DNA of 64,000 bases from Candidatus Woesearchaeota archaeon (GCA_964651965.1 CAZYZS010000006.1:42-64041), one strand, 5' to 3'; shown: positions 14,012 through 32,583, numbered from the stretch's first letter. The notes: generated by a model from the sequence alone, not told the origin. Numbers and translations: made by a program.

Positions 14012-14272
14012 ATGAACTTAAAACCTACTTTGTGGAAAACTATACTGCCTATTGTTATCGGGTTGGTGGTTTTTATTTATTTAGCTGAAAGCTTGGGTTG
14101 TGACGGGAAGTGTTCTTACGGTACAGAGTTTAATATAGGGCTCCTTTTGGCAATAGCCATTTATCTTGTAATCAGCCTCTTCCAGAAAAAGAGGGAGAGG
14201 GGCCTGCCGAAAGAAAATAAAAAAGCAAACAGACCTAAAAGAAGGAAGAAGGCTAAAAAGAGGAAGAGATAA
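14012..14272 (+). CDS. small two-TM hairpin membrane protein with CxxxC loop and Lys/Arg tail (86 aa)
   Basis: AAAGAGG Shine-Dalgarno 6 nt upstream. TM1, loop SLGCDGKCSYG, TM2, tail KKANRPKRRKKAKKRKR. Long ORFs are unlikely by chance in AT-rich DNA. Confidence 0.55.
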   Translation: MNLKPTLWKTILPIVIGLVVFIYLAESLGCDGKCSYGTEFNIGLLLAIAIYLVISLFQKKRERGLPKENKKANRPKRRKKAKKRKR

Positions 14273-14275
14273 ACC

Positions 14276-14530
14276 ATGAACTTTAGACTTACAAAGAAGA
14301 AAACAATAGTATGTATACTATTCTTTATAGTGTCTACATTCTTAATCGATTGGATCATTGTAGCCGGGATGTTATGTGATTGTCCTTTTTCACAATTTTT
14401 GTTTCAGAGCACAATAGCCGGATTAGTATTAACAATCGTATTATTTATACTTTGGAGTTTGGCACAGGAAAATAAGAAAATAAAAAAACAACTTCCAATT
14501 AAATCCAAATCCAAAAAGAGGAAGAAATAA
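14276..14530 (+). CDS. small two-TM hairpin membrane protein with CxC loop and Lys tail (84 aa)
   Basis: Starts 3 nt after the previous stop and ends 2 nt before the gap ATG. Loop MLCDCPF; tail KSKSKKRKK, whose codons AAGAGGAAG form the SD of gap. Confidence 0.55.
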   Translation: MNFRLTKKKTIVCILFFIVSTFLIDWIIVAGMLCDCPFSQFLFQSTIAGLVLTIVLFILWSLAQENKKIKKQLPIKSKSKKRKK

Positions 14531-14532
14531 AC

Positions 14533-15522
14533 ATGAGAGTAGCAATTAACGGTTTGGGAAGGATAGGAAGACCTGTATTGAAATTATGCCTGCAGAACCG
14601 AATTAAGGTGGTGGCAGTTAATGATTTAACAAGCCCGGAGGTTCTTGCTTATTTGTTAAAGTACGATTCTATTTATGGAAGATATAATGAAAAAGTAACT
14701 TATGGAGAGAACTACATTAAAATTGGCAAGAGAAAGATAAGAGTTTATTCTGAAACTGACCCTGAGAAACTTCCGTGGGAGAGACTAAGAGTTGATGCAG
14801 TTGTCGAATCCACTGGAAAGTTTAAGATGAGAGAAGAAGCTTATAAACATATTTTGGCAGGTGCTAAGAAAGTTGTTATTTCTGCGCCTTCTCCAAATCC
14901 GGATGTCACAATTGTTCCCGGAGTTAACGATAAAGATTATAACAACGTGTATGAAATTTTTTCACTTGGTTCATGCACTACTAATTGTTTAGCGCCTGTT
15001 GCAAAGGTGTTGGATGACGAGTTTGGCATAACAAAAGGTTTTATGACAACAGCGCATGCTTATACTAATGACCAGAATATTTTGGATTTGCCGCATAAAA
15101 AACTCAGGAGGACAAGGGCGGCAGCGATTAACATAGTTCCAACAACGAGCGGGGCTACAGAATCGGTTGTTGCAGTTTTGCCTCAGTTAAAAGGAAGATT
15201 AGACGGCTTAGCTCTAAGAGTGCCTGTTGCATGCGGGAGCATAGTAGATTTTGTTTGCCAACTTCAAAATCCTGCCACTATCAAAAGAATAAACAATGCC
15301 TTTGAACGCGTTTCTAGGAAAGAGATGAAAGGAATTCTTCAATATAACGAAGACGAAATAGTTAGTTCAGATATTATAGGAAATCCCCATTCTTCTATTT
15401 TTGATTCGACATTAACACAAGTAATTGGAAAAGAGGGGCATTTAATCAAAGTACTTTCTTGGTATGACAACGAGTTCGGATATAGCAACAGAATGGTTGA
15501 TTTCTTGAAAAAACTTAGGTAA
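14533..15522 (+). CDS. gap: glyceraldehyde-3-phosphate dehydrogenase, type I (bacterial/eukaryotic class)
   Basis: MRVAINGLGRIGR, active site SLGSCTTNCLAP, WYDNEFGYSNR C-terminus. Confidence 0.9.
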   Translation: MRVAINGLGRIGRPVLKLCLQNRIKVVAVNDLTSPEVLAYLLKYDSIYGRYNEKVTYGENYIKIGKRKIRVYSETDPEKLPWERLRVDAVVESTGKFKMREEAYKHILAGAKKVVISAPSPNPDVTIVPGVNDKDYNNVYEIFSLGSCTTNCLAPVAKVLDDEFGITKGFMTTAHAYTNDQNILDLPHKKLRRTRAAAINIVPTTSGATESVVAVLPQLKGRLDGLALRVPVACGSIVDFVCQLQNPATIKRINNAFERVSRKEMKGILQYNEDEIVSSDIIGNPHSSIFDSTLTQVIGKEGHLIKVLSWYDNEFGYSNRMVDFLKKLR

Positions 15523-15535
15523 AAAAACAATAAGG
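15522..15535 (+). repeat. 14-nt intergenic motif AAAAAACAATAAGG, copy 1
   Basis: Identical 14-mer at 15991-16004. Both copies sit just after a stop codon and just upstream of a TATA box. Confidence 0.6.
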
Positions 15536-15539
15536 AACA

Positions 15540-15547
15540 TTTATATA
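15540..15547 (+). promoter_or_regulatory. TATA box TTTATATA, 21 nt upstream of ATG 15569
   Basis: Read directly; leaderless spacing. Confidence 0.4.
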
Positions 15548-15568
15548 ATTTATAGGAACCATATTCTT

Positions 15569-15988
15569 ATGGATACTTTTGAAAGAAAGTACGGGATTAA
15601 GGAAGATGAAAAAACCAAAAGGTTTCATGAAAGCAGGAGAATGTTTTGTATTTATCAAGGCAAATTAGTTATTGCAGAGCCTAACTTACCTTATTCACAT
15701 GCTGTTTGGTTTCAAAAGAATGGGTGGATGTCTGAGCAGGAGGATAACCTTATGAACGAGATTGTTAGGGGATGTATAGACAAGGAAGGAAACGTTTATT
15801 TTTATGCGGGATATGACTTCCAAATAAATAATCAGATTGAACTTATTCTTTTCAGTCACTTGAGCGAATTAGTTGAAATACTTAAATTAAGGCCAGATGC
15901 CAAAATATTTGGAGGTTCGATAAACCAAAAAGCAGGTGCAAAATGGCTTCCTAGAAAAGAGTACGGGAAGATTAAAGATAATTTATGA
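15569..15988 (+). CDS. hypothetical protein (139 aa)
   Basis: ORF plus promoter spacing; no motif I recognise. Confidence 0.5.
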   Translation: MDTFERKYGIKEDEKTKRFHESRRMFCIYQGKLVIAEPNLPYSHAVWFQKNGWMSEQEDNLMNEIVRGCIDKEGNVYFYAGYDFQINNQIELILFSHLSELVEILKLRPDAKIFGGSINQKAGAKWLPRKEYGKIKDNL

Positions 15989-15990
15989 AT

Positions 15991-16004
15991 AAAAAACAAT
16001 AAGG
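15991..16004 (+). repeat. 14-nt intergenic motif AAAAAACAATAAGG, copy 2
   Basis: Directly abuts TTTATAAT (16005-16012) upstream of trxB. Confidence 0.6.
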
Positions 16005-16054
16005 TTTATAATATATCTTTTATTCCTTATTTTATAAAAAGGTGAAGATAAAAA

Positions 16055-16972
16055 ATGCTATATGATTTAATAATTATTGGTGGCGGTCCTGCAGGCATGA
16101 CTGCTGCAATTTATGCGGCAAGGCAGAAAATAAAGTTCATGATTATAAGCATGGATGTTGGCGGGCAGATGGGCTGGAGTTCTAAAGTTGAAAATTATCC
16201 AGGAGTTCCTGATAAAAGCGGGATTGCGCTCGTTGAGAGATTCCAGAAGCATATGCAGGATTATAAAATAAAAATAAAACAGGAAGAAATCTTAAAATTA
16301 GAGAAGAATAAAAATATATGCGTTGTAAGGACAAAGAAAAATTTTTATGAGAGCAAAGCTGTGATAATTGCTGCTGGGAAAAAGCCTAGAAAATTAAATG
16401 TGCCAGGAGAAGATAAATTTACAGGGTTGGGAGTTAATTACTGTGCTGTATGCGATGCTCCGCTTTTTAAGGATAAAATCTGTGCGGTAGTTGGAGGAGG
16501 AAATTCAGGAATGGACGCTGCTTTGTTCCTTTCAAAATATGCAAAAAAGGTTTATATTTTGGAATATTTGCCCAAGTTAGGTGGAGATAACTTTCTAAGA
16601 GAAAAAGTCCTTAATGAGAAAAAGATAACAGTAATTACAGGAGCTAAGATGAAGGAGATTATTGGAAATAAAATTGTTGAAAAAATAAAATATGAGAAAG
16701 AGGGAAACGAAAATGAATTGCCTATCGATGGAGTTTTTGTTGAAATAGGGCTTATAAGCCAGTATGATTTTACAGATGTCCAGAAAAACAAGTGGGGGGA
16801 GATAATGATATTTAGAAGCACTATAAGCCATGAGGAGAATATGACTGACATACCTGGAATTTTTGCAGCAGGCGACTGTACGGACATCCCTTCTAAACAA
16901 ATAATCGTAGCAGCAGGCGAAGGTGCGAAAGCAGCTCTCGCTTCTTTTAACTATATTAACAGGTGGAAATAA
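16055..16972 (+). CDS. trxB: thioredoxin-disulfide reductase (low-Mr NTR type)
   Basis: YDLIIIGGGPAGMTAAIYAAR (FAD), redox CAVC in NYCAVCDAPLF, VVGGGNSGMD (NADPH), AAGDC. Confidence 0.9.
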   Translation: MLYDLIIIGGGPAGMTAAIYAARQKIKFMIISMDVGGQMGWSSKVENYPGVPDKSGIALVERFQKHMQDYKIKIKQEEILKLEKNKNICVVRTKKNFYESKAVIIAAGKKPRKLNVPGEDKFTGLGVNYCAVCDAPLFKDKICAVVGGGNSGMDAALFLSKYAKKVYILEYLPKLGGDNFLREKVLNEKKITVITGAKMKEIIGNKIVEKIKYEKEGNENELPIDGVFVEIGLISQYDFTDVQKNKWGEIMIFRSTISHEENMTDIPGIFAAGDCTDIPSKQIIVAAGEGAKAALASFNYINRWK

Positions 16973-16981
16973 TTTGATAAG

Positions 16982-17632
16982 ATGGACTTGTCTATTTTCT
17001 CAAGTATAACAGAATATCTAAAGGTTTTAATAACCTTTAATCTGTATCTTGGAGCCTTTTTAGCGGCCATTATAGAGACTATTTTATTTTCGTTAGTTCC
17101 AGGCGAGGTTGTAATGCCTTTGGCAGGTTACTTGGCCTCTTTGAACAATTATGGATATCTGGGTTTGCTCGGTGTTACTTTGTGTGCTACATTAGGGGCT
17201 ACAATTGGAGCAGTGCTTATTTATTACATTTCCTTAAAGCTCGGCAGGCCGGTTATTTTAAAATACGGAAAATATTTTTTTATAACTGAAGAGAAGCTTT
17301 CTAGTGCAGAAAAATGGTTTGAGAAATATGGCACAAAGGCTGTTTTTTTCGGAAGAATGGCCCCTGCAATTAGAGAGTTGGTCTCCATACCTGCAGGCTT
17401 TTCAAAAATGGATCTTAAGAAATATATTTTCTACACTTTTCTCGGAACTTTTTTATGGACTCTTTTTTTAATTTCTCTTGGATTTTTTCTTGGAGCTTAT
17501 GTTGAAACATTAAACCTATCTGGGATATTTGAGAAAACTGGTGTTTTTATAATTCTGCTCATTGCAGTTTATATTATTTTTAAAATACTTAACAAGAAAT
17601 TTAAAAAGAAACAGCTAAGTGCCATCCAATAG
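16982..17632 (+). CDS. DedA/SNARE-associated family membrane protein
   Basis: 216 aa, multi-TM, FFGRMAPAIRELVSIPAG signature. Confidence 0.8.
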   Translation: MDLSIFSSITEYLKVLITFNLYLGAFLAAIIETILFSLVPGEVVMPLAGYLASLNNYGYLGLLGVTLCATLGATIGAVLIYYISLKLGRPVILKYGKYFFITEEKLSSAEKWFEKYGTKAVFFGRMAPAIRELVSIPAGFSKMDLKKYIFYTFLGTFLWTLFLISLGFFLGAYVETLNLSGIFEKTGVFIILLIAVYIIFKILNKKFKKKQLSAIQ

Positions 17633-17667
17633 GTTTAAAAGGCATTTTTTCTTAAATTGTAATAAAG

Positions 17668-17985
17668 ATGGTGAATAAAGAAACAAATAAGGTCTGGAAT
17701 TTTTTTAAGCCAAGCATATTGAAAGTAGTTATAACTGTAGTTATATTCTTATTTTTTGTGCCTTTTGTCAGTATAGACTCAGGAGTTAGATGTGTTACAG
17801 AGCCGTGTGAATCTGAATCTACTGTTTCTCTTCTTATATATATTATTTCGGTGTTTGAAGGAGAGGTGACTGTTTATGACTTTTTTTATACAAATATTTT
17901 ATTGGGGATTGTTGCTTCCTATGTTTCGTCCTGCATAGTTGTGGTTTTAGTTGCTTATTTGAAAAATAAAGCCAAAGATATTTAA
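17668..17985 (+). CDS. small two-TM membrane protein with CxxxxC loop (105 aa)
   Basis: TM1, loop GVRCVTEPCESES, TM2, tail KNKAKDI. The stop lies 1 nt before the pgk ATG. Confidence 0.5.
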   Translation: MVNKETNKVWNFFKPSILKVVITVVIFLFFVPFVSIDSGVRCVTEPCESESTVSLLIYIISVFEGEVTVYDFFYTNILLGIVASYVSSCIVVVLVAYLKNKAKDI

Positions 17986-17986
17986 T

Positions 17987-19126
17987 ATGAGAACTTTGTC
18001 TGATTTTGATTTCAGGGGAAAGATAGTTTTGCTAAGGGCAGATTTGAATTCTGATGTTGTTGGAGGGAAGGTTTTGATGAGTGAGAGAATAAAAGAGTCT
18101 GCTGTAACAATAAACGAGCTAAAACAGAAAAGAGCTAAAGTTGTTGTGATAGCACATCAGGGAAGAAAAGGAGATTCTGATTTCACTTCTTTAAAGCAAC
18201 ATTCTGCACTTTTGAATAAGTTTACAAAAATAAAATTTGTTGATGAGGTTAGTGGTGAAAAAGCAAGGAAGGCCATAAAAGGGATGAAAGAGGGAGAAGC
18301 CATCCTTTTAGAAAATATTAGAAATATAGACGATGAGCTTAAGCCCGAAAAAGGAGAAGAAAATGAAATAGTCAAATTCTTTGTCCCGCTTGTTAATGCC
18401 TATGTTAATGATTCTTTTTCTGTCTGTCATAGAGAGCAGGCTTCAATTACTCTGCTGCCAAAATACATCCCTTGTTTTGCAGGGAGGCTGCTTGAAAAAG
18501 AAGTCAATGCCTTGAAGAAAATAAAAATGAAAGAATGTTTGTACATATTAGGGGGGGCAAAGCCAGAAGACAACTTAAAATTGTTGCGTGGAAATAAGGT
18601 CTTAGCTTGCGGGCTGTTTGGGCAATTGTGCTTAATTGCGATGGGAAAAGGTTTAGGAGCCCAGAATAAATATCTCGAGGGGCAGATTAAAGATTTTGAT
18701 AGAGTGGTAGAGGAGCTAAAAGGAAAACTAAAAAATGTGCAAACTCCTATTGATTTTGCAGTTAAGAAAAATGGAAAAAGAGAGGAAATCTTACTGGAGA
18801 ATTTTCCTAGTGAATATGAAATTTTTGATATAGGCGAGAAAACCCAGAAAAAATACATTGAACAGATTAAAAAGGCAAAATCCATTTATATGAAAGGCCC
18901 TGCTGGATTTTGTGGAGAGGAGCCGTTTTCAAAGGGCACCATTGCCATTTTAAAGGCAGTTTCAGAGAGCAAGGGCTTTACATTGATAGGAGGAGGACAT
19001 CTTTCTGACGCAATTGAAATGTCTAAAATACCGAAGGAAGAGTTTGGGCATATAAGCCTTTCTGGAGGTGCATTATTAAGCTACGTCGCAGGGGAGAAAT
19101 TGCCAGGGTTAGAAGCATTGGGATGA
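17987..19126 (+). CDS. pgk: phosphoglycerate kinase (archaeal type)
   Basis: GKIVLLRADLNSDV, VVIAHQGRKG, GGAK, GGGHLS motifs; 379 aa. Confidence 0.85.
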   Translation: MRTLSDFDFRGKIVLLRADLNSDVVGGKVLMSERIKESAVTINELKQKRAKVVVIAHQGRKGDSDFTSLKQHSALLNKFTKIKFVDEVSGEKARKAIKGMKEGEAILLENIRNIDDELKPEKGEENEIVKFFVPLVNAYVNDSFSVCHREQASITLLPKYIPCFAGRLLEKEVNALKKIKMKECLYILGGAKPEDNLKLLRGNKVLACGLFGQLCLIAMGKGLGAQNKYLEGQIKDFDRVVEELKGKLKNVQTPIDFAVKKNGKREEILLENFPSEYEIFDIGEKTQKKYIEQIKKAKSIYMKGPAGFCGEEPFSKGTIAILKAVSESKGFTLIGGGHLSDAIEMSKIPKEEFGHISLSGGALLSYVAGEKLPGLEALG

Positions 19127-28508: not shown

Positions 28509-28562
28509 AAGGTTTTTAACTAATTAAATCTTTCTTTATGCATCAAAAAAGAGGAATCAAAA

Positions 28563-28820
28563 ATGGGAAAGATAACTACAGGAGGAATTGTTACAACTTC
28601 TATAATCAGCGCGTTCACAATAGCTGCTGCTTTGATATGGAAAGATGTTATAGATGGCGTGATAAAACTTATTTTTCCTGCAGACCAGCTTCTACTCAAG
28701 TTTATTGCAGCTATCTTAGCTACCATTCTGGTTGTTGTATTCATCTATATTATACTAATGGCTGAATCTGAGACTAAAATTGTTTTGAGAAAATTTAAAT
28801 TGGGCAAGAGGAAAAAATGA
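28563..28820 (+). CDS. small two-TM membrane protein with basic tail (85 aa)
   Basis: AAGAGGA SD upstream; two helices; tail RKFKLGKRKK. ATGA overlap with the pfkB-family start; the tail codons AAGAGGAAA are the SD of the next gene. Confidence 0.5.
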   Translation: MGKITTGGIVTTSIISAFTIAAALIWKDVIDGVIKLIFPADQLLLKFIAAILATILVVVFIYIILMAESETKIVLRKFKLGKRKK

Positions 28821-29734
28821 AATTTGATGTTGTAACCTTTGGTTCTGCAGTTAAGGATGTTTTTGTAGTAACTGATTTAGCTGACAGGGGAAAGTTCATT
28901 GCTTATCCTATTGGAGCCAAGATTCTTATTAAAGAGCTAAGATATGACATCGGTGGAGGGGGAACAAACACCGCAGTTGCATTTTCTAGACTGGGGCTTA
29001 AGACCGGATTCATTGGTAAGGTTGGAAAGGACGGGACCGGGTATGAAATTTTAGATATGCTTAAGAGAGAAAATGTGAAATTCCTTGGCAAGATGGAGAA
29101 AAAAGGGCTTACTGGATTTTCTATTATCCTAGACAGCCAGGAGAACGATAGGACGATTTTAACTTATAAAGGCATTAATGATACAATTAGCATGAGAGAC
29201 ATAAAGTTAAGAAAATTAAAAACTAAATGGCTATATCTTTCTTCTTTGCTTGGGGAGAGTCTTGAAACTCAAATTACCCTTGCGAGAGCGTTAAAAAAAC
29301 GCGGCGTTAAAATAGTATTTAATCCGAGTTCTTATCTTACCGAGAGAAAAGAGTTAATAGAGCACTTATTGATGGTTTCTGATATACTCGTTCTGAATAA
29401 AGAAGAGTCGCAAATGCTTACAAGCAGAAGGGATCTGCTTAAGGGGCTGCATGACCTGACTGGCGGGATTGTTGTAATAACCGACAGGGATAAAAAAATT
29501 TCTGCATTTGATGGAGCAAGAAAATATTATTTAGCGCCTAATAAGATAAAAGTTAGAGAAAGGACGGGGGCTGGAGACGCTTTTGCTTCAGGTTTTGTTG
29601 CAGGGCAGATAGTTGGAATGAATATGGAGGAAAGTCTAAAACTGGGGTTAAGGGAGTCTGAATCAGTTATAAAATATTTTGGAGCTAAAAATAACCTTTT
29701 AAGGATAAACCTCCGTGAAGTTTGGAAGGGTTAA
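28817..29734 (+). CDS. PfkB/ribokinase-family sugar (phosphate) kinase
   Basis: GGGGTNTA, C-terminal TGAGDAFASGF. Position just upstream of fba suggests a phosphofructokinase-like role (inference). Confidence 0.85.
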   Translation: MKFDVVTFGSAVKDVFVVTDLADRGKFIAYPIGAKILIKELRYDIGGGGTNTAVAFSRLGLKTGFIGKVGKDGTGYEILDMLKRENVKFLGKMEKKGLTGFSIILDSQENDRTILTYKGINDTISMRDIKLRKLKTKWLYLSSLLGESLETQITLARALKKRGVKIVFNPSSYLTERKELIEHLLMVSDILVLNKEESQMLTSRRDLLKGLHDLTGGIVVITDRDKKISAFDGARKYYLAPNKIKVRERTGAGDAFASGFVAGQIVGMNMEESLKLGLRESESVIKYFGAKNNLLRINLREVWKG

Positions 29735-29782
29735 ATTTATAAAAGGCGTTTTGCTTGATAGTTCATAAAAGAGGAAAAAAGA

Positions 29783-30538
29783 ATGAAGCGAGTCAATTTA
29801 AAAGATATAACGCGCCAAGGCAAAGCAATTTTCTTGGCTTATGACCAGGGCTTAGAGCACGGTCCGAGCGATTTTAACGATAGAAATGTTGATCCTCTGT
29901 ATATAATTGACTTGGCTAAAAGAGGGGGATTTACTTCTCTTGTTCTTCAAAAAGGAATTGTTGAAAAGTATATAGAGGAGATAAGAAAATCCGGTGTGCC
30001 TTTGCTAATGAAGCTCAATGGCAAGACTGATTTGTTTAGGGGAGACCCTATTTCAAGCCAGATATGCACTGTCAAAGAGGCTATTGACTTTGGAGCAAAA
30101 GCAGTAGGGTTTACAATCTATATTGGCAGCCAGCATGAAGGGAAGATGATTGAGCAATTCGAAGCAATTGAAAGAGAGGCTCACGCTAAGGGCCTGCCGG
30201 TTATAGCCTGGATTTATGCAAGAGGTAGCTCAGTAAGAGTAAGGTCGAGCAGCGAACTTATGGCTTATGCCACTAGAACTGGTTTGGAGACTGGAGCAGA
30301 CATTGTCAAGATCAAGTACGATGGGGATGCAAAAGGGCTTAAATGGGCAATAAAATCTGCTGGCAGGACAAAAGTAGTAATCGCTGGTGGGATGAAAAAA
30401 GATGAAGGCCTATTCTTAACCCAAGTTAAAGAGATTATGGATGCAGGAGCAATTGGGCTTGCTGTTGGCAGAAATATATGGCAGCATAAAGATCCTATGT
30501 TGATTACAAGAAAGGTAAAGAAGATGTTATGGGGTTAG
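29783..30538 (+). CDS. fba: class I (archaeal DhnA/FbaB-type) fructose-bisphosphate aldolase
   Basis: 251 aa TIM barrel: FLAYDQGLEHGP, LMKLNGKT, ADIVKIKY (Schiff-base Lys region), VIAGG, AVGRNIWQ. Confidence 0.8.
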   Translation: MKRVNLKDITRQGKAIFLAYDQGLEHGPSDFNDRNVDPLYIIDLAKRGGFTSLVLQKGIVEKYIEEIRKSGVPLLMKLNGKTDLFRGDPISSQICTVKEAIDFGAKAVGFTIYIGSQHEGKMIEQFEAIEREAHAKGLPVIAWIYARGSSVRVRSSSELMAYATRTGLETGADIVKIKYDGDAKGLKWAIKSAGRTKVVIAGGMKKDEGLFLTQVKEIMDAGAIGLAVGRNIWQHKDPMLITRKVKKMLWG

Positions 30539-30539
30539 A

Positions 30540-30764
30540 ATGGAGAACCTCTTCTTGTTAAACTGGAAGAAATTTTTATTATTGGTTCTGTTTTTTATCA
30601 TAACCTCCTTGATATATATAGCTATGAGCTCTTTGAGGGATACAGAAGAATCTGGATTCTTATTATTTGCCTTGATACTTATTCCTGTGTATTTTGCAGT
30701 TGCTATATTCTACTCTTTAGTTTACATTATAATTAGGAAAAGAAAAGGAAAAGAGCCAGAATAG
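30540..30764 (+). CDS. small two-TM hairpin membrane protein with basic tail (74 aa)
   Basis: Starts 1 nt after the fba stop; two helices; tail RKRKGKEPE. Confidence 0.5.
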   Translation: MENLFLLNWKKFLLLVLFFIITSLIYIAMSSLRDTEESGFLLFALILIPVYFAVAIFYSLVYIIIRKRKGKEPE

Positions 30765-30767
30765 AAA

Positions 30768-31403
30768 ATGAACCGAAAATTTATTATGCTTGCCTCTATT
30801 TGCGGTATAATTGCCCCAATACTTTCTTTTGGATTGATAATCCTTTTTGGCTATCTTACTCCAGGTTACAATCCCATTTCAGACTTTATAAGCAGTATTT
30901 GGAGTGTTGGTAGCAGATTTCAATGGGCTTCATTGGCATTCCTTGTTTTGGCGGGAGCCTTATTCATGATTTTTTCCATAGGCCTTTATTTGGCAATTGA
31001 TGAGGATAAATTCTCTAACTACAATTTTATTTTGCTTACTGTATTTTCATTTAGCTTAATATTTTTAGGAATTTTTCCTTGTGAATCTACCTACTGCAAT
31101 GCACAGGGATTCACCCTTCACTTATTTTTCACTATGATCGCATGTGCATCCTTGGGCTTTTCCCCTCTTTTATTATTTTTTGTTACCTATAAAGATAAAA
31201 AATGGAAAAACTTTGAAAAAAATAATCTAGTATTCTTCTTCTCGTCTGTTTTTTTCCTGGCACTCTATGGTCTTTTTTACGATGAATATAAGGGATTTTT
31301 TCAAAGGGCCTATTTTTTTATTTGTTTTTTATGGGTTGAGAGAGTGAGCATAAAATTATTTAAACTATCTATGACTAGTAAAAACATAAAAAAGAGGAAA
31401 TAA
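30768..31403 (+). CDS. DUF998-like polytopic membrane protein
   Basis: 211 aa, ~6 TM, TPGYNPISDFIS motif. The tail KNIKKRK encodes the SD for tpiA. Confidence 0.55.
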   Translation: MNRKFIMLASICGIIAPILSFGLIILFGYLTPGYNPISDFISSIWSVGSRFQWASLAFLVLAGALFMIFSIGLYLAIDEDKFSNYNFILLTVFSFSLIFLGIFPCESTYCNAQGFTLHLFFTMIACASLGFSPLLLFFVTYKDKKWKNFEKNNLVFFFSSVFFLALYGLFYDEYKGFFQRAYFFICFLWVERVSIKLFKLSMTSKNIKKRK

Positions 31404-31408
31404 GGAAG

Positions 31409-32035
31409 ATGAGACCAATAGTTATTGTTAACTTTAAGACTTATCAGCAGGGAAAGGCCGCGGTTACCTTGGCTAAAAAGCTGCAGAAAGTTGATAAGAA
31501 CATTATAGTTGGAGTAGAGGCAACTGATGTTTATGAAATTGTGAAGAAAACGAAATTAAGGGTTTATGCGCAGCATGTAGATTATTTTGAGCCTGGAAGG
31601 TATACCGGATTTATTTTACCAGAAGCTGTCAAGGAAGATGGGGCAGAAGGTACTTTCTTAAATCATTCAGAACACAGATTAAAAAGAAGAGTTATAAGAA
31701 AGACAATAAAAAGATGCAGGCGAGTTGGATTGAAAACAGCTGTTTTTGCAGTTTCGCTTAGGGAAGCAAAGAAAATAAGGAGAATGAAACCAGATTATCT
31801 TATAATTGAGCCTCCTGAGCTTGTTGCAGGGGATATTTCTGTTTCAAAGGCAAAGCCAGAGCTTATTGAAACAATAGCAAGAAAATTAAAATATCCGTTC
31901 TTGGTAGGGGCGGGAATAAAAAACAAAAATGATGTTAAAATTGCAATGAAACTAGGAGCATCTGGAATTGCAGTAAGCTCTGCAATAACAACAGCAAAAA
32001 ATCCTGGAAAAAAATTAAGAGAGCTGATAAAATAG
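31409..32035 (+). CDS. tpiA: triosephosphate isomerase (short archaeal type)
   Basis: IVIVNFKTY, LNHSEHR, IIEPPELV, GAGI; 208 aa. Confidence 0.8.
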   Translation: MRPIVIVNFKTYQQGKAAVTLAKKLQKVDKNIIVGVEATDVYEIVKKTKLRVYAQHVDYFEPGRYTGFILPEAVKEDGAEGTFLNHSEHRLKRRVIRKTIKRCRRVGLKTAVFAVSLREAKKIRRMKPDYLIIEPPELVAGDISVSKAKPELIETIARKLKYPFLVGAGIKNKNDVKIAMKLGASGIAVSSAITTAKNPGKKLRELIK

Positions 32036-32037
32036 GC

Positions 32038-32583
32038 ATGAATAACAAAAAGAAAAAACAGAGATTAGTGGTACTTCAAAAAGAGAAATGCGAACAAAAA
32101 GAGGAGAAAGAGAGCGTAGAGGAATACTTCTTCAAGTATGCTTTCCCTTGTGCGCAAGTTAAAGTGAAGCTTGGGAGCTTGAAAAAAGAAGATTATGATA
32201 AGCTTAAAGAAACTTTTCTTGCTGGAGAGTGTCCGGACAAAGAAAATTTAGAGAAGGTTTTTCCTCCGGCTTTTAGACGACTGAACAAACTGGCAGAGAG
32301 AATGAAAAAAGAGGTTTGGGATTTAGAAGTATTAAGAGAGTATTGGGAGAAAAACCATAACGAAGTAATTAATGAGGGAGAGGGGATGTATGGAACAGCT
32401 TCTGAAGGATTTAAAGAGCTATGCAAGGTTCATGAAGCGGAAGTTGTAGAAAAACATAAAGATGCTTTAATTGTCAAATACTGTGGGAAAAAAAGAGCAG
32501 TTTCTAATTTTCTTGTTCCGGATGCAGAGGTTGGAGACAAAGTAAGAATTCATTTTGCTTATGCTGTTGAGAAAGTCAAATAA
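32038..32583 (+). CDS. protein with C-terminal HypC/HybG/HupF-like domain behind a ~125-aa N-terminal extension
   Basis: The C-terminal LCKVHEAEVVEKHKDALIVKYCGKKRAVSNFLVPDAEVGDKVRIHFAYAVEKV aligns by eye to HypC (MCIGVPGQI...A.V.vCGi.R.V...LV....vGqwVLVHvGFAm). The N-terminal part is unknown. Confidence 0.55.
   Translation: MNNKKKKQRLVVLQKEKCEQKEEKESVEEYFFKYAFPCAQVKVKLGSLKKEDYDKLKETFLAGECPDKENLEKVFPPAFRRLNKLAERMKKEVWDLEVLREYWEKNHNEVINEGEGMYGTASEGFKELCKVHEAEVVEKHKDALIVKYCGKKRAVSNFLVPDAEVGDKVRIHFAYAVEKVK

Follow-up and report, generated by a model that had tools for sequence, protein, structure and literature searches.

Do the lysine- and arginine-rich tails of small membrane proteins encoded among glycolytic genes belong to the proteins themselves, or to the ribosome-binding site (RBS) of the gene that follows? 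The question is raised by a pfkB-fba-tpiA cluster within a window of 64,000 nt (the whole stretch of DNA analyzed here) from a MAG of a Pacearchaeota-like DPANN archaeon with 36% GC. The dual-use tails of this locus are real, yet they are an ordinary by-product of tight operon packing and require no new mechanism. The pfkB-fba-tpiA cluster is conserved, and three genuine membrane-protein genes (A, D and E) were picked up in the host's genus.

The cluster, on the + strand throughout, has the order A-pfkB-fba-D-E-tpiA-181-aa ORF, with junctions of -4 nt (A/pfkB), +1 nt (fba/D), +3 nt (D/E), +5 nt (E/tpiA) and +2 nt (tpiA/181-aa ORF); the coordinates and gaps given in an earlier, sequence-only reading of the window all agree with our ORF map, and the four Lys/Arg codon runs that it singled out, detailed below, are all in frame. 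Gene A (28563..28820) encodes a DUF5654 protein of 85 aa, a membrane hairpin of two helices whose basic tail, LRKFKLGKRKK, is cytoplasmic. It is preceded by a non-coding AAGAGGA Shine-Dalgarno (SD) sequence (28549..28555), which pairs with GAUCACCUCCU at -6.9 kcal/mol, has its GAGG 12 nt ahead of the ATG, and is also present in the nearest relative, G001. The 3' end of gene A reads AAG AGG AAA AAA TGA, where the TGA is shared with the pfkB ATG at 28817 (ATGA), and the dual-use run AAG AGG AAA (K-R-K; 28806..28814) provides the SD for pfkB, with GAGG (28808-28811, -9 relative to pfkB) 5 nt ahead of its ATG. The pfkB-family sugar kinase (28817..29734; PF00294, E=2.5e-36; orthologues in 7 relatives) is followed by a spacer (29736..29775) containing a TATA-like TTTATAAAA (29736-29744), a candidate internal promoter of fba, and the AAGAGGA SD of fba (29769-29775), both of which are kept in G001. 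The fba gene (29783..30538; PF01791, E=1.8e-41) encodes a Class I (DeoC/LacD-type) fructose-bisphosphate aldolase, and its 3' end harbors an SD-like GGGGU (30531-30535, at -9) for gene D (30540..30764), which encodes a lineage-restricted hairpin of 74 aa with two TM segments and RKRKGKEPE as its tail. Gene E (30768..31403), a DUF998 polytopic membrane protein (211 aa, ~5 TM segments, tail KNIKKRK), ends in a further dual-use AAG AGG AAA (K-R-K; 31392..31400), in which GAGG stands 11 nt before the ATG of tpiA (31409..32035; PF00121, E=1.6e-25; orthologues found), encoding an archaeal-type triosephosphate isomerase of 208 aa. This run is identical in G001, where the ORF downstream is a different one. 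PfkB, the DeoC-type aldolase and TIM all score far over their Pfam cut-offs, and their enzyme identities rest on these HMM matches.

The co-directional run ends with the 181-aa ORF (32038..32583), kept downstream of tpiA in G001 and G094. We describe its C-terminal stretch only as 'HypC-like', because the HupF/HypC (PF01455) score of 27.4 bits falls just under the cut-off of 28.5, and the match (residues 134-180 of 181) lies away from the N-terminus. Dual-use tails also occur in the first glycolytic block, in the 14-kb region: AAG AGG AAG AGA (KRKR; 14258..14269, +) at the end of an 86-aa ORF is the SD of an 84-aa ORF at 14276, which in turn ends in AAG AGG AAG (KRK; 14516..14524, +), the SD of gap at 14533 (GAGG at -15).

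Dual coding presupposes that the small ORFs are genes, as opposed to chance open frames in AT-rich spacers, in which case nothing would be dual-coding. The hexamer coding scores of D (1.6) and E (-10.7) fall under the threshold used here, and D is nearly without homologues (only 4 close ones among 5.8 billion proteins); low scores are expected for membrane proteins, however, because the model was trained on long, mostly soluble ORFs. Against G001, gene A retains 81% identity with dN/dS of 0.14, and gene D 84% identity with dN/dS of 0.12; gene E likewise has 0.12 (dS 0.6-1.5 for the small ORFs), compared with 0.14 for Fba and 0.055 for PfkB. Gene A exceeds the gathering threshold of DUF5654 (PF18898), a family of archaeal small membrane proteins of unknown function (36.3 bits vs. 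a cut-off of 23.8, model positions 10-64 of 71; 35.1 bits in six-frame translation), and has 68 homologues; in an alignment with 24 homologues, it matches over its full length, AF..A.A.IW.D and P39 being invariant. Gene E matches DUF998 (PF06197) with 63.2 bits (cut-off 30) over model positions 1-178 of 184, and is found between fba and tpiA in two metagenomic relatives as well. In genus g91, a distant homologue of D (BLASTP E=3e-12) likewise lies between Fba and TpiA. An AF2 model of A (25-sequence alignment, pLDDT 78.8) confidently forms a hairpin of two helices (H6-37/H43-84), which bears out the earlier '2-TM' label; for D, the label is borne out by two hydropathy segments. This conservation pattern indicates that the small ORFs are real genes, and the chance-frame explanation, to which we give almost no credence, is refuted by it. 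One source names a DUF5654 homologue as an MscL-like channel; a profile search of PDB sequences returned no MscL match, and hhalign of DUF5654 against MscL from locus L032 gave a probability of 0.7%.

At orthologous loci, the sequence-only reading had expected the small ORFs to be present and intact. This holds in the nearest relative, where they are kept under purifying selection, but not in the congener G002 or in several other genera: G002, G034 and G026 possess pfkB-fba-tpiA with no small ORF at the locus. The interleaving of small genes is thus lineage-specific.

Is the AAGAGGA motif an RBS? The MAG lacks a 16S gene, so the host's own anti-SD is inferred; the 16S 3' end of ten relatives is GAUCACCUCCU. 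Among k-mers collected de novo, the words most enriched ahead of tight starts are GGAGGT (17.7x), AGGAGG (14.1x) and GGAGG (11x), and GAGG/GGAG peak in position between -18 and -8 from starts, a broad window that includes the GAGG of tpiA (-15). In addition, A, fba and the 14012 ORF carry AAAGAGGAAA in leaders that are non-coding. These observations support the earlier claim that the motif is an RBS. Because the relatives' 16S ends and the host's enriched words leave a 4-bp GAGG core, AAGAGGA is to be regarded as a moderate SD: only GAGG (4 nt) pairs with the canonical anti-SD (-5.8 kcal/mol, ~23rd percentile of all starts), and this 4-bp match is not stronger than ~16% of internal control sites. 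Within the window, AAGAGGA is present at 32 sites (17.0 +/- 4.2 expected; none of 100 shuffles reaches 32), with 10 of these 32 sites situated within 20 nt ahead of an ORF start, 8 of them in the two glycolytic blocks.

Across the genome, an SD core (GAGG/GGAG at -20 to -5) precedes 36.6% of 407 tight starts (those no more than 15 nt behind an upstream gene), whereas the share is 8.3% for genes that are divergent or first, 10.5% where the start lies at 16-60 nt, and 10.3% for internal in-frame ATG controls; the gene calls, TM calls and start choices used in such genome-wide tests are simple heuristics that add noise with no obvious bias. For pfkB, tpiA, gap and D, the motif, which pairs with the CCUC(C) of the relatives' 16S, lies inside the upstream ORF, within ~20 nt of the next start. 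At the D-E junction no recognisable SD core was found, and this junction must therefore depend on closeness alone or on some unseen feature.

This arrangement resembles that of gene pairs that overlap or abut and carry an intragenic SD, for which termination-reinitiation has been described (Huber et al. 2019, Nat Commun 10:4006, PMC6728339; follow-up PMC10666635). As in that work, the pairs are co-directional, overlap by ATGA or are separated by no more than 5 nt, and carry the SD within the upstream coding end. The excess of SD cores at tight junctions over leading genes corresponds to the third pattern of PMC6728339, that of Haloarchaea and Crenarchaeota I; DPANN is not among the phylum names in the portions quoted from that paper. 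In contrast to PMC6728339, coupling is here predicted from sequence, and the SD is a short GAGG core in a strongly A-rich context. Given the spacing of -4 to +5 nt, the concentration of SD cores at tight junctions and the pattern of Huber et al., it is plausible that the downstream genes are translationally coupled through termination-reinitiation helped by the SD.

Tight packing leaves a mark on upstream tails throughout the genome, in accordance with the earlier proposal that tail composition follows the presence of a downstream coupled gene. The last 6 residues contain on average 1.64 K+R in 348 coupled genes and 1.23 in 1079 uncoupled genes (p=1.8e-8); genes with a follower at 16-40 nt display no such effect (1.31). 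The coupled/uncoupled ratio is highest for G (1.43x) and K (1.41x), followed by E (1.26x) and R (1.15x), and codon choice shifts as well: the AGG share of Arg codons is 0.40 in coupled and 0.23 in uncoupled tails, and the GAG share of Glu codons is 0.45 and 0.26, respectively. Counted over the last 8 codons, GAGG appears 98 times among the 348 coupled genes and 88 times among the 1079 uncoupled ones (p=2e-19). The effect has faded by codon -10, giving a footprint of ~9 codons. Since the last ~9 codons of tightly followed genes are rich in K, E, G, R and AGG/GAG, the RBS does leave an imprint on the tails.

This imprint could be taken to the extreme, such that the Lys/Arg tails have no protein-level role at all and are by-products of selection for the A-rich, GAGG-bearing RBS of the next gene. 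Such a reading can point to the K/E/G/R and AGG/GAG excess being restricted to genes whose follower lies within 15 nt, and to the DUF5654-pfkB junction, where the SD core is retained in five relatives despite changes in the residues that encode it (KR here, RR in G001, KE in L025 and KG in L030). The family alignment, however, shows basic tails in 25/25 aligned DUF5654 members, among them solitary or convergent ones (FGKNRR, FRRRRR, PKKKEPDKKSP) and coupled ones devoid of any SD core (KKARKK, KKKNNR). Likewise, the homologue of D in another genus has the tail ISRRKTKKSISLKKRKKRR and no GAGG, and an extra 95-aa ORF in G001 ends in EKRK, coded with CGT and with no SD. The basic tails of the 14012 and 14276 ORFs extend over 20-28 residues, far longer than the ~9-codon footprint, and uncoupled tails already contain K/R at 1.5x the proteome level. 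Finally, the same GAGG is read in different frames by the two classes of protein: 12/22 sites in coupled membrane proteins are in the Arg frame vs. 17/76 in soluble proteins (p=0.007), which favor the Glu frame. The family alignment largely refutes the RBS-only reading, and we hold it to be very improbable; the earlier warning that the RBS, and not the function of the protein, may shape the tails is not upheld as stated, as DUF5654 tails are basic with no coupled gene behind them and membrane proteins prefer the Arg frame. In these membrane proteins, basic tails are mainly a protein feature.

That a downstream RBS constrains codon and amino-acid use at gene ends was reportedly described for a bacterium, Escherichia coli, by Eyre-Walker in 1996, the same principle as here; a membrane-vs.-soluble frame preference is not known to have been reported there.

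We favor, with considerable confidence, an explanation in which the cluster contains acquired membrane genes and tail-embedded RBSs, the tails being basic as a protein trait and bearing an RBS imprint in addition. SD pairing is used mainly for genes that start directly behind another gene, and the downstream RBS consists of GAGG in an A-rich context (consensus AAAGAGGAAA). Given the packing of -4 to +5 nt and SD use at such starts, the RBS must fall within the codons that close the preceding gene. What makes the tails basic in the first place is their position at the cytoplasmic end of membrane hairpins, in keeping with the positive-inside rule and as a family-wide trait: A has 8 K/R and 2 E in the tail AESETKIVLRKFKLGKRKK, vs. 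3 K and 3 D in the loop, and D has a net charge of +3 in its tail and -2 in the loop SSLRDTEESG. As all of the Lys/Arg codons AAA, AAG, AGA and AGG consist of purines, such tails can host GAGG almost cost-free when the frame is xxG-AGG (Arg). The RBS adds its own measurable imprint, genome-wide, to the final ~9 codons of each gene that has a tight follower. The anatomy, motif statistics, tail statistics, conservation and purifying selection that this explanation joins together were observed directly.

A universal C-terminal enrichment of Lys/Arg, stronger in membrane proteins, and an NNA-UGA bias arising from overlapping start codons have been described (Weber et al. 2020, Mol Syst Biol 16:e9208, PMC7246954). 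The tails examined here agree with PMC7246954 in the K/R excess of uncoupled genes, in the AAA before TGA that yields an overlapping ATG, and in the basic tails of membrane proteins. PMC7246954, in which the term RBS is absent, did not separate the effect of a downstream SD; what is added here is a further excess of K/E/G/R and of AGG/GAG that depends on coupling and spans ~9 codons, measured in one genome. The RBS biases these codons while the protein sets the frame that carries it (Arg in membrane, Glu in soluble proteins), a division that could generalise across genomes. For annotation, the small ORFs of this locus deserve to be called, and the SD in the preceding gene fixes the starts of small ORFs, pfkB and tpiA. 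In compact genomes, a C-terminal Lys/Arg run should not be interpreted as a functional motif (for nucleic-acid binding, or a signal) before checking for a gene behind it, and conversely, a basic tail is not an RBS product by default. Both forces are separable in this one genome.

Should the hairpins precede glycolytic genes by design, bringing the ribosome and the polycistronic mRNA to the membrane or anchoring the enzyme, then that design would include tight coupling and an RBS embedded in the tail. A coupled small TM ORF stands directly upstream of 4/6 glycolytic genes in the window vs. 36/1654 genes genome-wide, close DUF5654 homologues overlap PfkB, PGK, TIM and adenylate kinase genes by 4 nt in different genomes, and a homologue of the pre-pgk ORF stands before tpiA in G031 (E=3e-7). 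However, such overlaps are confined to A's own subfamily (at least 50% identity), in contrast to the wider DUF5654, which is present in 79/121 genomes of the host's taxonomic family and is followed by a glycolytic gene at 0/30 family-wide loci; small TM ORFs account for 9% of the genes, the enolase of this genome lacks such a neighbor, and the congener and several other genera have the operon without one. In addition, the glycolytic genes lie within one ~20-kb neighborhood, and local shuffling can therefore pass a small gene between enzymes. We consider a functional partnership unlikely.

In 6/29 genera, a small TM gene directly precedes tpiA, with at least 5 unrelated families represented, compared with 1/30 for pgk and 1/29 for radA (6/29 vs. 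2/59, p=0.014, a post hoc comparison that is not tree-corrected). The recurring genes, which usually overlap by 4 nt, include D-like, DUF5654 and Cys-loop types, a K+-channel-like mini-protein and others, and are seen before tpiA and other glycolytic genes. It is conceivable, though we consider it quite improbable, that this recurrence is selected, with TM translation occurring first such that the glycolytic enzyme would be made, and perhaps retained, at the envelope of cells that are ultra-small and probably host-dependent; the RBS within the tail would then serve to keep both translations linked. Small membrane genes at the fba-tpiA junction of several Pacearchaeota genera hint, weakly, at the only part of this locus that might lead somewhere new. 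The excess of small TM genes before tpiA is not predicted by pure neutral insertion.

The second glycolytic block of the window, on its forward strand, interleaves membrane-protein genes with pfkB, fba and tpiA, and the ORF map proposed by the sequence-only reading proved exact on re-checking. Gene A (28563-28820, 85 amino acids) shares an ATGA overlap with pfkB (28817-29734, PfkB family in Pfam); fba (29783-30538), encoding a DeoC-type class I aldolase (Pfam), follows after a 48-nt spacer, and gene D (30540-30764, 74 amino acids, two hydrophobic segments), gene E (30768-31403, 211 amino acids), tpiA (31409-32035, TIM in Pfam) and a 181-amino-acid ORF (32038-32583) succeed one another after 1, 3, 5 and 2 nt, respectively. 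Gene A belongs to DUF5654 (Pfam, 36.3 bits against a cut-off of 23.8) and gene E to DUF998 (Pfam, 63.2 bits against 30). A is predicted to form a two-helix hairpin (pLDDT 78.8), and the charge distribution of both A and D satisfies the positive-inside rule. A relationship between DUF5654 and MscL was rejected, as was a single family uniting A, D and the four hairpins of block 1, the other glycolytic block (pairwise phmmer comparisons of single sequences, 7-14 bits, not significant). The terminal ORF, originally termed HypC-like, does resemble HupF/HypC (PF01455), but only across its C-terminal residues 134-180 and at 27.4 bits, below the cut-off of 28.5; it is retained downstream of tpiA in the nearest relative, G001, and, more weakly, in the relative G094. 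Rfam, tRNA and rRNA scans of the window returned no match. Directly behind the pfkB stop codon, at 29736-29744 and ∼40 nt upstream of the fba ATG, lies TTTATAAAA, also kept in G001, which looks like an archaeal TATA box; it would give fba a short leader bearing a Shine-Dalgarno (SD) sequence, so that block 2 may comprise two transcription units.

Basic codon runs at the ends of several genes had been proposed to serve simultaneously as ribosome-binding sites (RBS) of the next gene. These runs are in frame, encoding KRK at 28806-28814, 31392-31400 and 14516-14524, and KRKR at 14258-14269. The host genome (1.42 Mb, 63 contigs, 36% GC, 83% complete, the window being its contig 6) belongs among archaea of 0.4-1.6 Mb, with Candidatus Pacearchaeota archaeon RBG_13_36_9 as the nearest relative in public records. 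Because 16S rRNA (RF01959) was found neither in this assembly nor in its two congeners, the anti-SD was taken from ten relatives and from de novo k-mers. The 16S 3' end reads GGAU(C/U)ACCUCC(U/C) in all ten, three of which are of the same family. Independently of these, the words most enriched 3-20 nt upstream of starts lying ≤15 nt behind another gene (GGAGGT, 17.7-fold; AGGAGG, 14.1-fold; GGAGG, 11-fold) are the exact complement of ACCUCC(U). The anti-SD is thus canonical, and AAGAGGA pairs with it through GAGG only.

The resulting duplex (-5.8 kcal/mol) ranks at about the 23rd percentile among all starts, a duplex of -6 kcal/mol is attained by ∼16% of the ATGs in the internal control set, and one AAGAGGA copy alone would carry little weight as evidence. 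The window, however, contains 32 copies where 17 are expected, a number reached in none of 100 shuffles. Ten lie ≤20 nt upstream of ORF starts, eight of them within the two glycolytic blocks (14001, 14258, 14516, 19173, 28549, 28806, 29769 and 31392). Three of these copies sit in non-coding leaders, upstream of A, fba and the 14012 ORF, so the motif is a genuine RBS rather than a by-product of Lys/Arg coding. GAGG, GGAG and AGGA show a positional peak at -18 to -6. Genome-wide, AAGAGG precedes ∼4.5% of starts, as against its clustering in the glycolytic blocks, which may point to strongly expressed genes or to a common descent of the junctions.

For genome-wide statistics, 1654 genes were called by hexamer log-odds with greedy selection and gap filling, masking edge partials; these gene, start and transmembrane (TM) calls are home-made heuristics. 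An SD core (GAGG or GGAG at -20 to -5) precedes 36.6% of the 407 starts located ≤15 nt behind a co-directional gene, 10.5% of genes 16-60 nt behind their upstream neighbor, 8.3% of divergent or first genes, and 10.3% of in-frame internal ATGs, which served as a control. This usage matches the pattern of Haloarchaea and Crenarchaeota I, for which Huber et al. (2019, PMC6728339) describe little SD use in de novo initiation and ample use for reinitiation at overlapping or abutting gene pairs. Given that likeness, tight translational coupling in block 2 can reasonably be inferred.

Tail composition follows the presence of a coupled downstream gene throughout the genome. The last six residues contain on average 1.64 Lys plus Arg in the 348 genes followed at -12 to +15 nt, versus 1.23 in 1079 uncoupled genes (p=1.8e-8) and 0.82 expected from the proteome. 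With a gap of 16-40 nt to the next gene, which places the SD in the spacer, the effect is absent (1.31); this excludes operon membership as an explanation. The residues enriched in coupled tails are those with all-purine codons (Gly 1.43-fold, Lys 1.41-fold, Glu 1.26-fold, Arg 1.15-fold), and codon choice shifts as well, the AGG share of Arg codons rising from 0.23 to 0.40 and the GAG share of Glu codons from 0.26 to 0.45. Purine content of the last four codons is 0.70-0.75 versus 0.60, returning to baseline by about codon -10, and GAGG occurs within the last eight codons 98 times in the 348 coupled genes versus 88 times in the 1079 uncoupled ones (p=2e-19).

The check put forward with the sequence-only reading, whether tail composition tracks a coupled downstream gene, is thus positive, and the RBS imposes a measurable bias. 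The accompanying warning that the basic tails may be shaped by the RBS rather than by protein function is nevertheless not supported as it stands, since the tails of these proteins are more than a side product of the RBS. Among 25 aligned DUF5654 proteins, the stretch behind the second helix varies but is always basic, including in a solitary gene (PKKKEPDKKSP), in a convergent one (FGKNRR) and where the next gene lies 47 nt away (FRRRRR); two members with a 4-nt overlap onto a TIM or adenylate kinase gene end in KKARKK and KKKNNR and have no SD core. The D homologue of another genus has the C-terminus ISRRKTKKSISLKKRKKRR, which lacks GAGG, and an additional 95-amino-acid hairpin of G001 ends in EKRK with a CGT codon. 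In block 1, the 14012 and 14276 ORFs carry tails of 28 and 21 residues, far past the ∼9-codon RBS footprint. The DUF5654-pfkB junction retains the SD core in the relatives examined while the residues encoding it vary (KR, RR, KE, KG), indicating selection on the SD independent of charge. The reading frame of GAGG also differs by protein class: coupled soluble proteins favor GAG-G, which yields Glu (44 of 76 sites, with xxG-AGG, yielding Arg, at 17), whereas coupled membrane proteins use xxG-AGG at 12 of 22 sites (Fisher p=0.007). A C-terminal excess of Lys and Arg is general, and larger in membrane proteins (Weber et al. 2020, PMC7246954). Most probably, basic cytoplasmic tails serve as pre-adapted hosts of an A-rich GAGG site, with the RBS contributing a secondary bias on top.

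In E. coli, terminal codon and amino-acid use was reportedly found by Eyre-Walker in 1996 to be affected by the embedded SD of the next gene. Location of the SD for the next gene in the coding end of the preceding one, at overlapping or abutting pairs, is established (Huber et al. 2019, PMC6728339), as is the basic bias at C-termini (Weber et al. 2020, PMC7246954). This case contributes a clean DPANN example of such an SD, the separation by measurement of the two forces, RBS and protein, within one genome, and the preference for a GAGG frame according to protein class.

The small ORFs themselves are real genes. Comparison with G001 (∼85% protein identity), which retains the order A-pfkB-fba-D-E, gives dN/dS values of 0.14, 0.12 and 0.12 for A, D and E, alongside 0.055 for PfkB and 0.14 for Fba. 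A de novo origin of D from a T-rich spacer is disfavored by its dN/dS of 0.12 and by a homologue at the same position in another genus. In G001, a 36-amino-acid ORF and a 95-amino-acid two-TM ORF additionally lie between the DUF998 gene and tpiA (locus L011, 7357-7745, contig C45), and tpiA has no SD core. Conservation of the INTERLEAVING at orthologous loci is mixed: the small ORFs are kept in G001, but pfkB, fba and tpiA occur without any small ORF in G002 (of the same genus), G034 and G026. The DUF5654 gene of G002 overlaps pgk instead, and in other relatives the operon contains, at varying positions, small TM ORFs that are non-homologous. At locus L034 (3250-3548), a DUF5654 gene has the identical AAG AGG AAA AAA TGA/ATGA junction, with the called pfkB 287 nt further on; a small ORF there may have escaped calling, or a start may be wrong.

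Depending on the genome, the gene overlapped by a close DUF5654 homologue codes for PfkB, PGK, TIM or adenylate kinase; a family-wide link to glycolysis was rejected, a glycolytic gene being next in 0 of 30 family-wide loci. Coupled small TM ORFs directly upstream were scored in one genome per genus of the same taxonomic family. They precede tpiA in 6 of 29 genera, plus DUF998 in the host genome itself, against 1 of 29 for radA, the control, and 1 of 30 for pgk (p=0.014 for tpiA against the other two genes, post hoc, on small counts and uncorrected for shared ancestry); a general placement ahead of pgk was rejected. The ORFs before tpiA represent at least five unrelated families, among them a D homologue that also occupies the Fba-D-TpiA position (E=3e-12), a homologue of the window's pre-pgk ORF (E=3e-7), a DUF5654 member, a 98-amino-acid protein with a K+-channel signature and further, unassigned small TM ORFs. 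The 98-amino-acid, two-TM ORF (locus L140, G130:C2) lies between fba and tpiA, overlaps tpiA by 4 nt and carries the selectivity signature TLTTIGYGD, making it a candidate minimal K+-channel-like gene within a glycolytic operon.

Of six glycolytic genes in the host genome, four have a small TM neighbor of this kind, versus 36 of 1654 genes overall; the rule fails for enolase, which has none, and small membrane genes make up 9% of all genes. The interleaving is real, locally recurrent and lineage-specific, and appears to be mainly the tolerated insertion and shuffling of abundant small membrane genes in a compact, probably well-expressed neighborhood. That membrane-first translation is functional seems quite improbable. 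A literature search on DUF5654 and on small membrane proteins linked to glycolysis in Pacearchaeota yielded no relevant paper.

Several neighboring arrangements were also observed. In most genera of the family (L065-L094, 30 genera), gap or trxB is coupled directly to pgk, with spacings from -4 to +1 nt, and in the window (14533-19126) a 139-amino-acid ORF, trxB, a DedA-like membrane protein gene and a 105-amino-acid hairpin intervene between gap and pgk. A ∼330-amino-acid gene starting MKIAFFE or MKIVFFD, missing from block 2, adjoins tpiA in three relatives' loci (L013, 5126-6133; L015, 6389-7378; L022, 5276-6280) and, judged by eye, looks like a D-2-hydroxyacid dehydrogenase. Finally, the minus strand of contig C21 of the host genome carries two 66-amino-acid, one-TM ORFs (17896-18096 and 18856-19056), both with the C-terminus TVERNQENTG and each overlapping by 4 nt a gene for a 210-amino-acid membrane protein; the partners have 45 N-terminal residues in common (end segments compared), and the arrangement looks like a recent tandem duplication of a small TM gene together with its partner.
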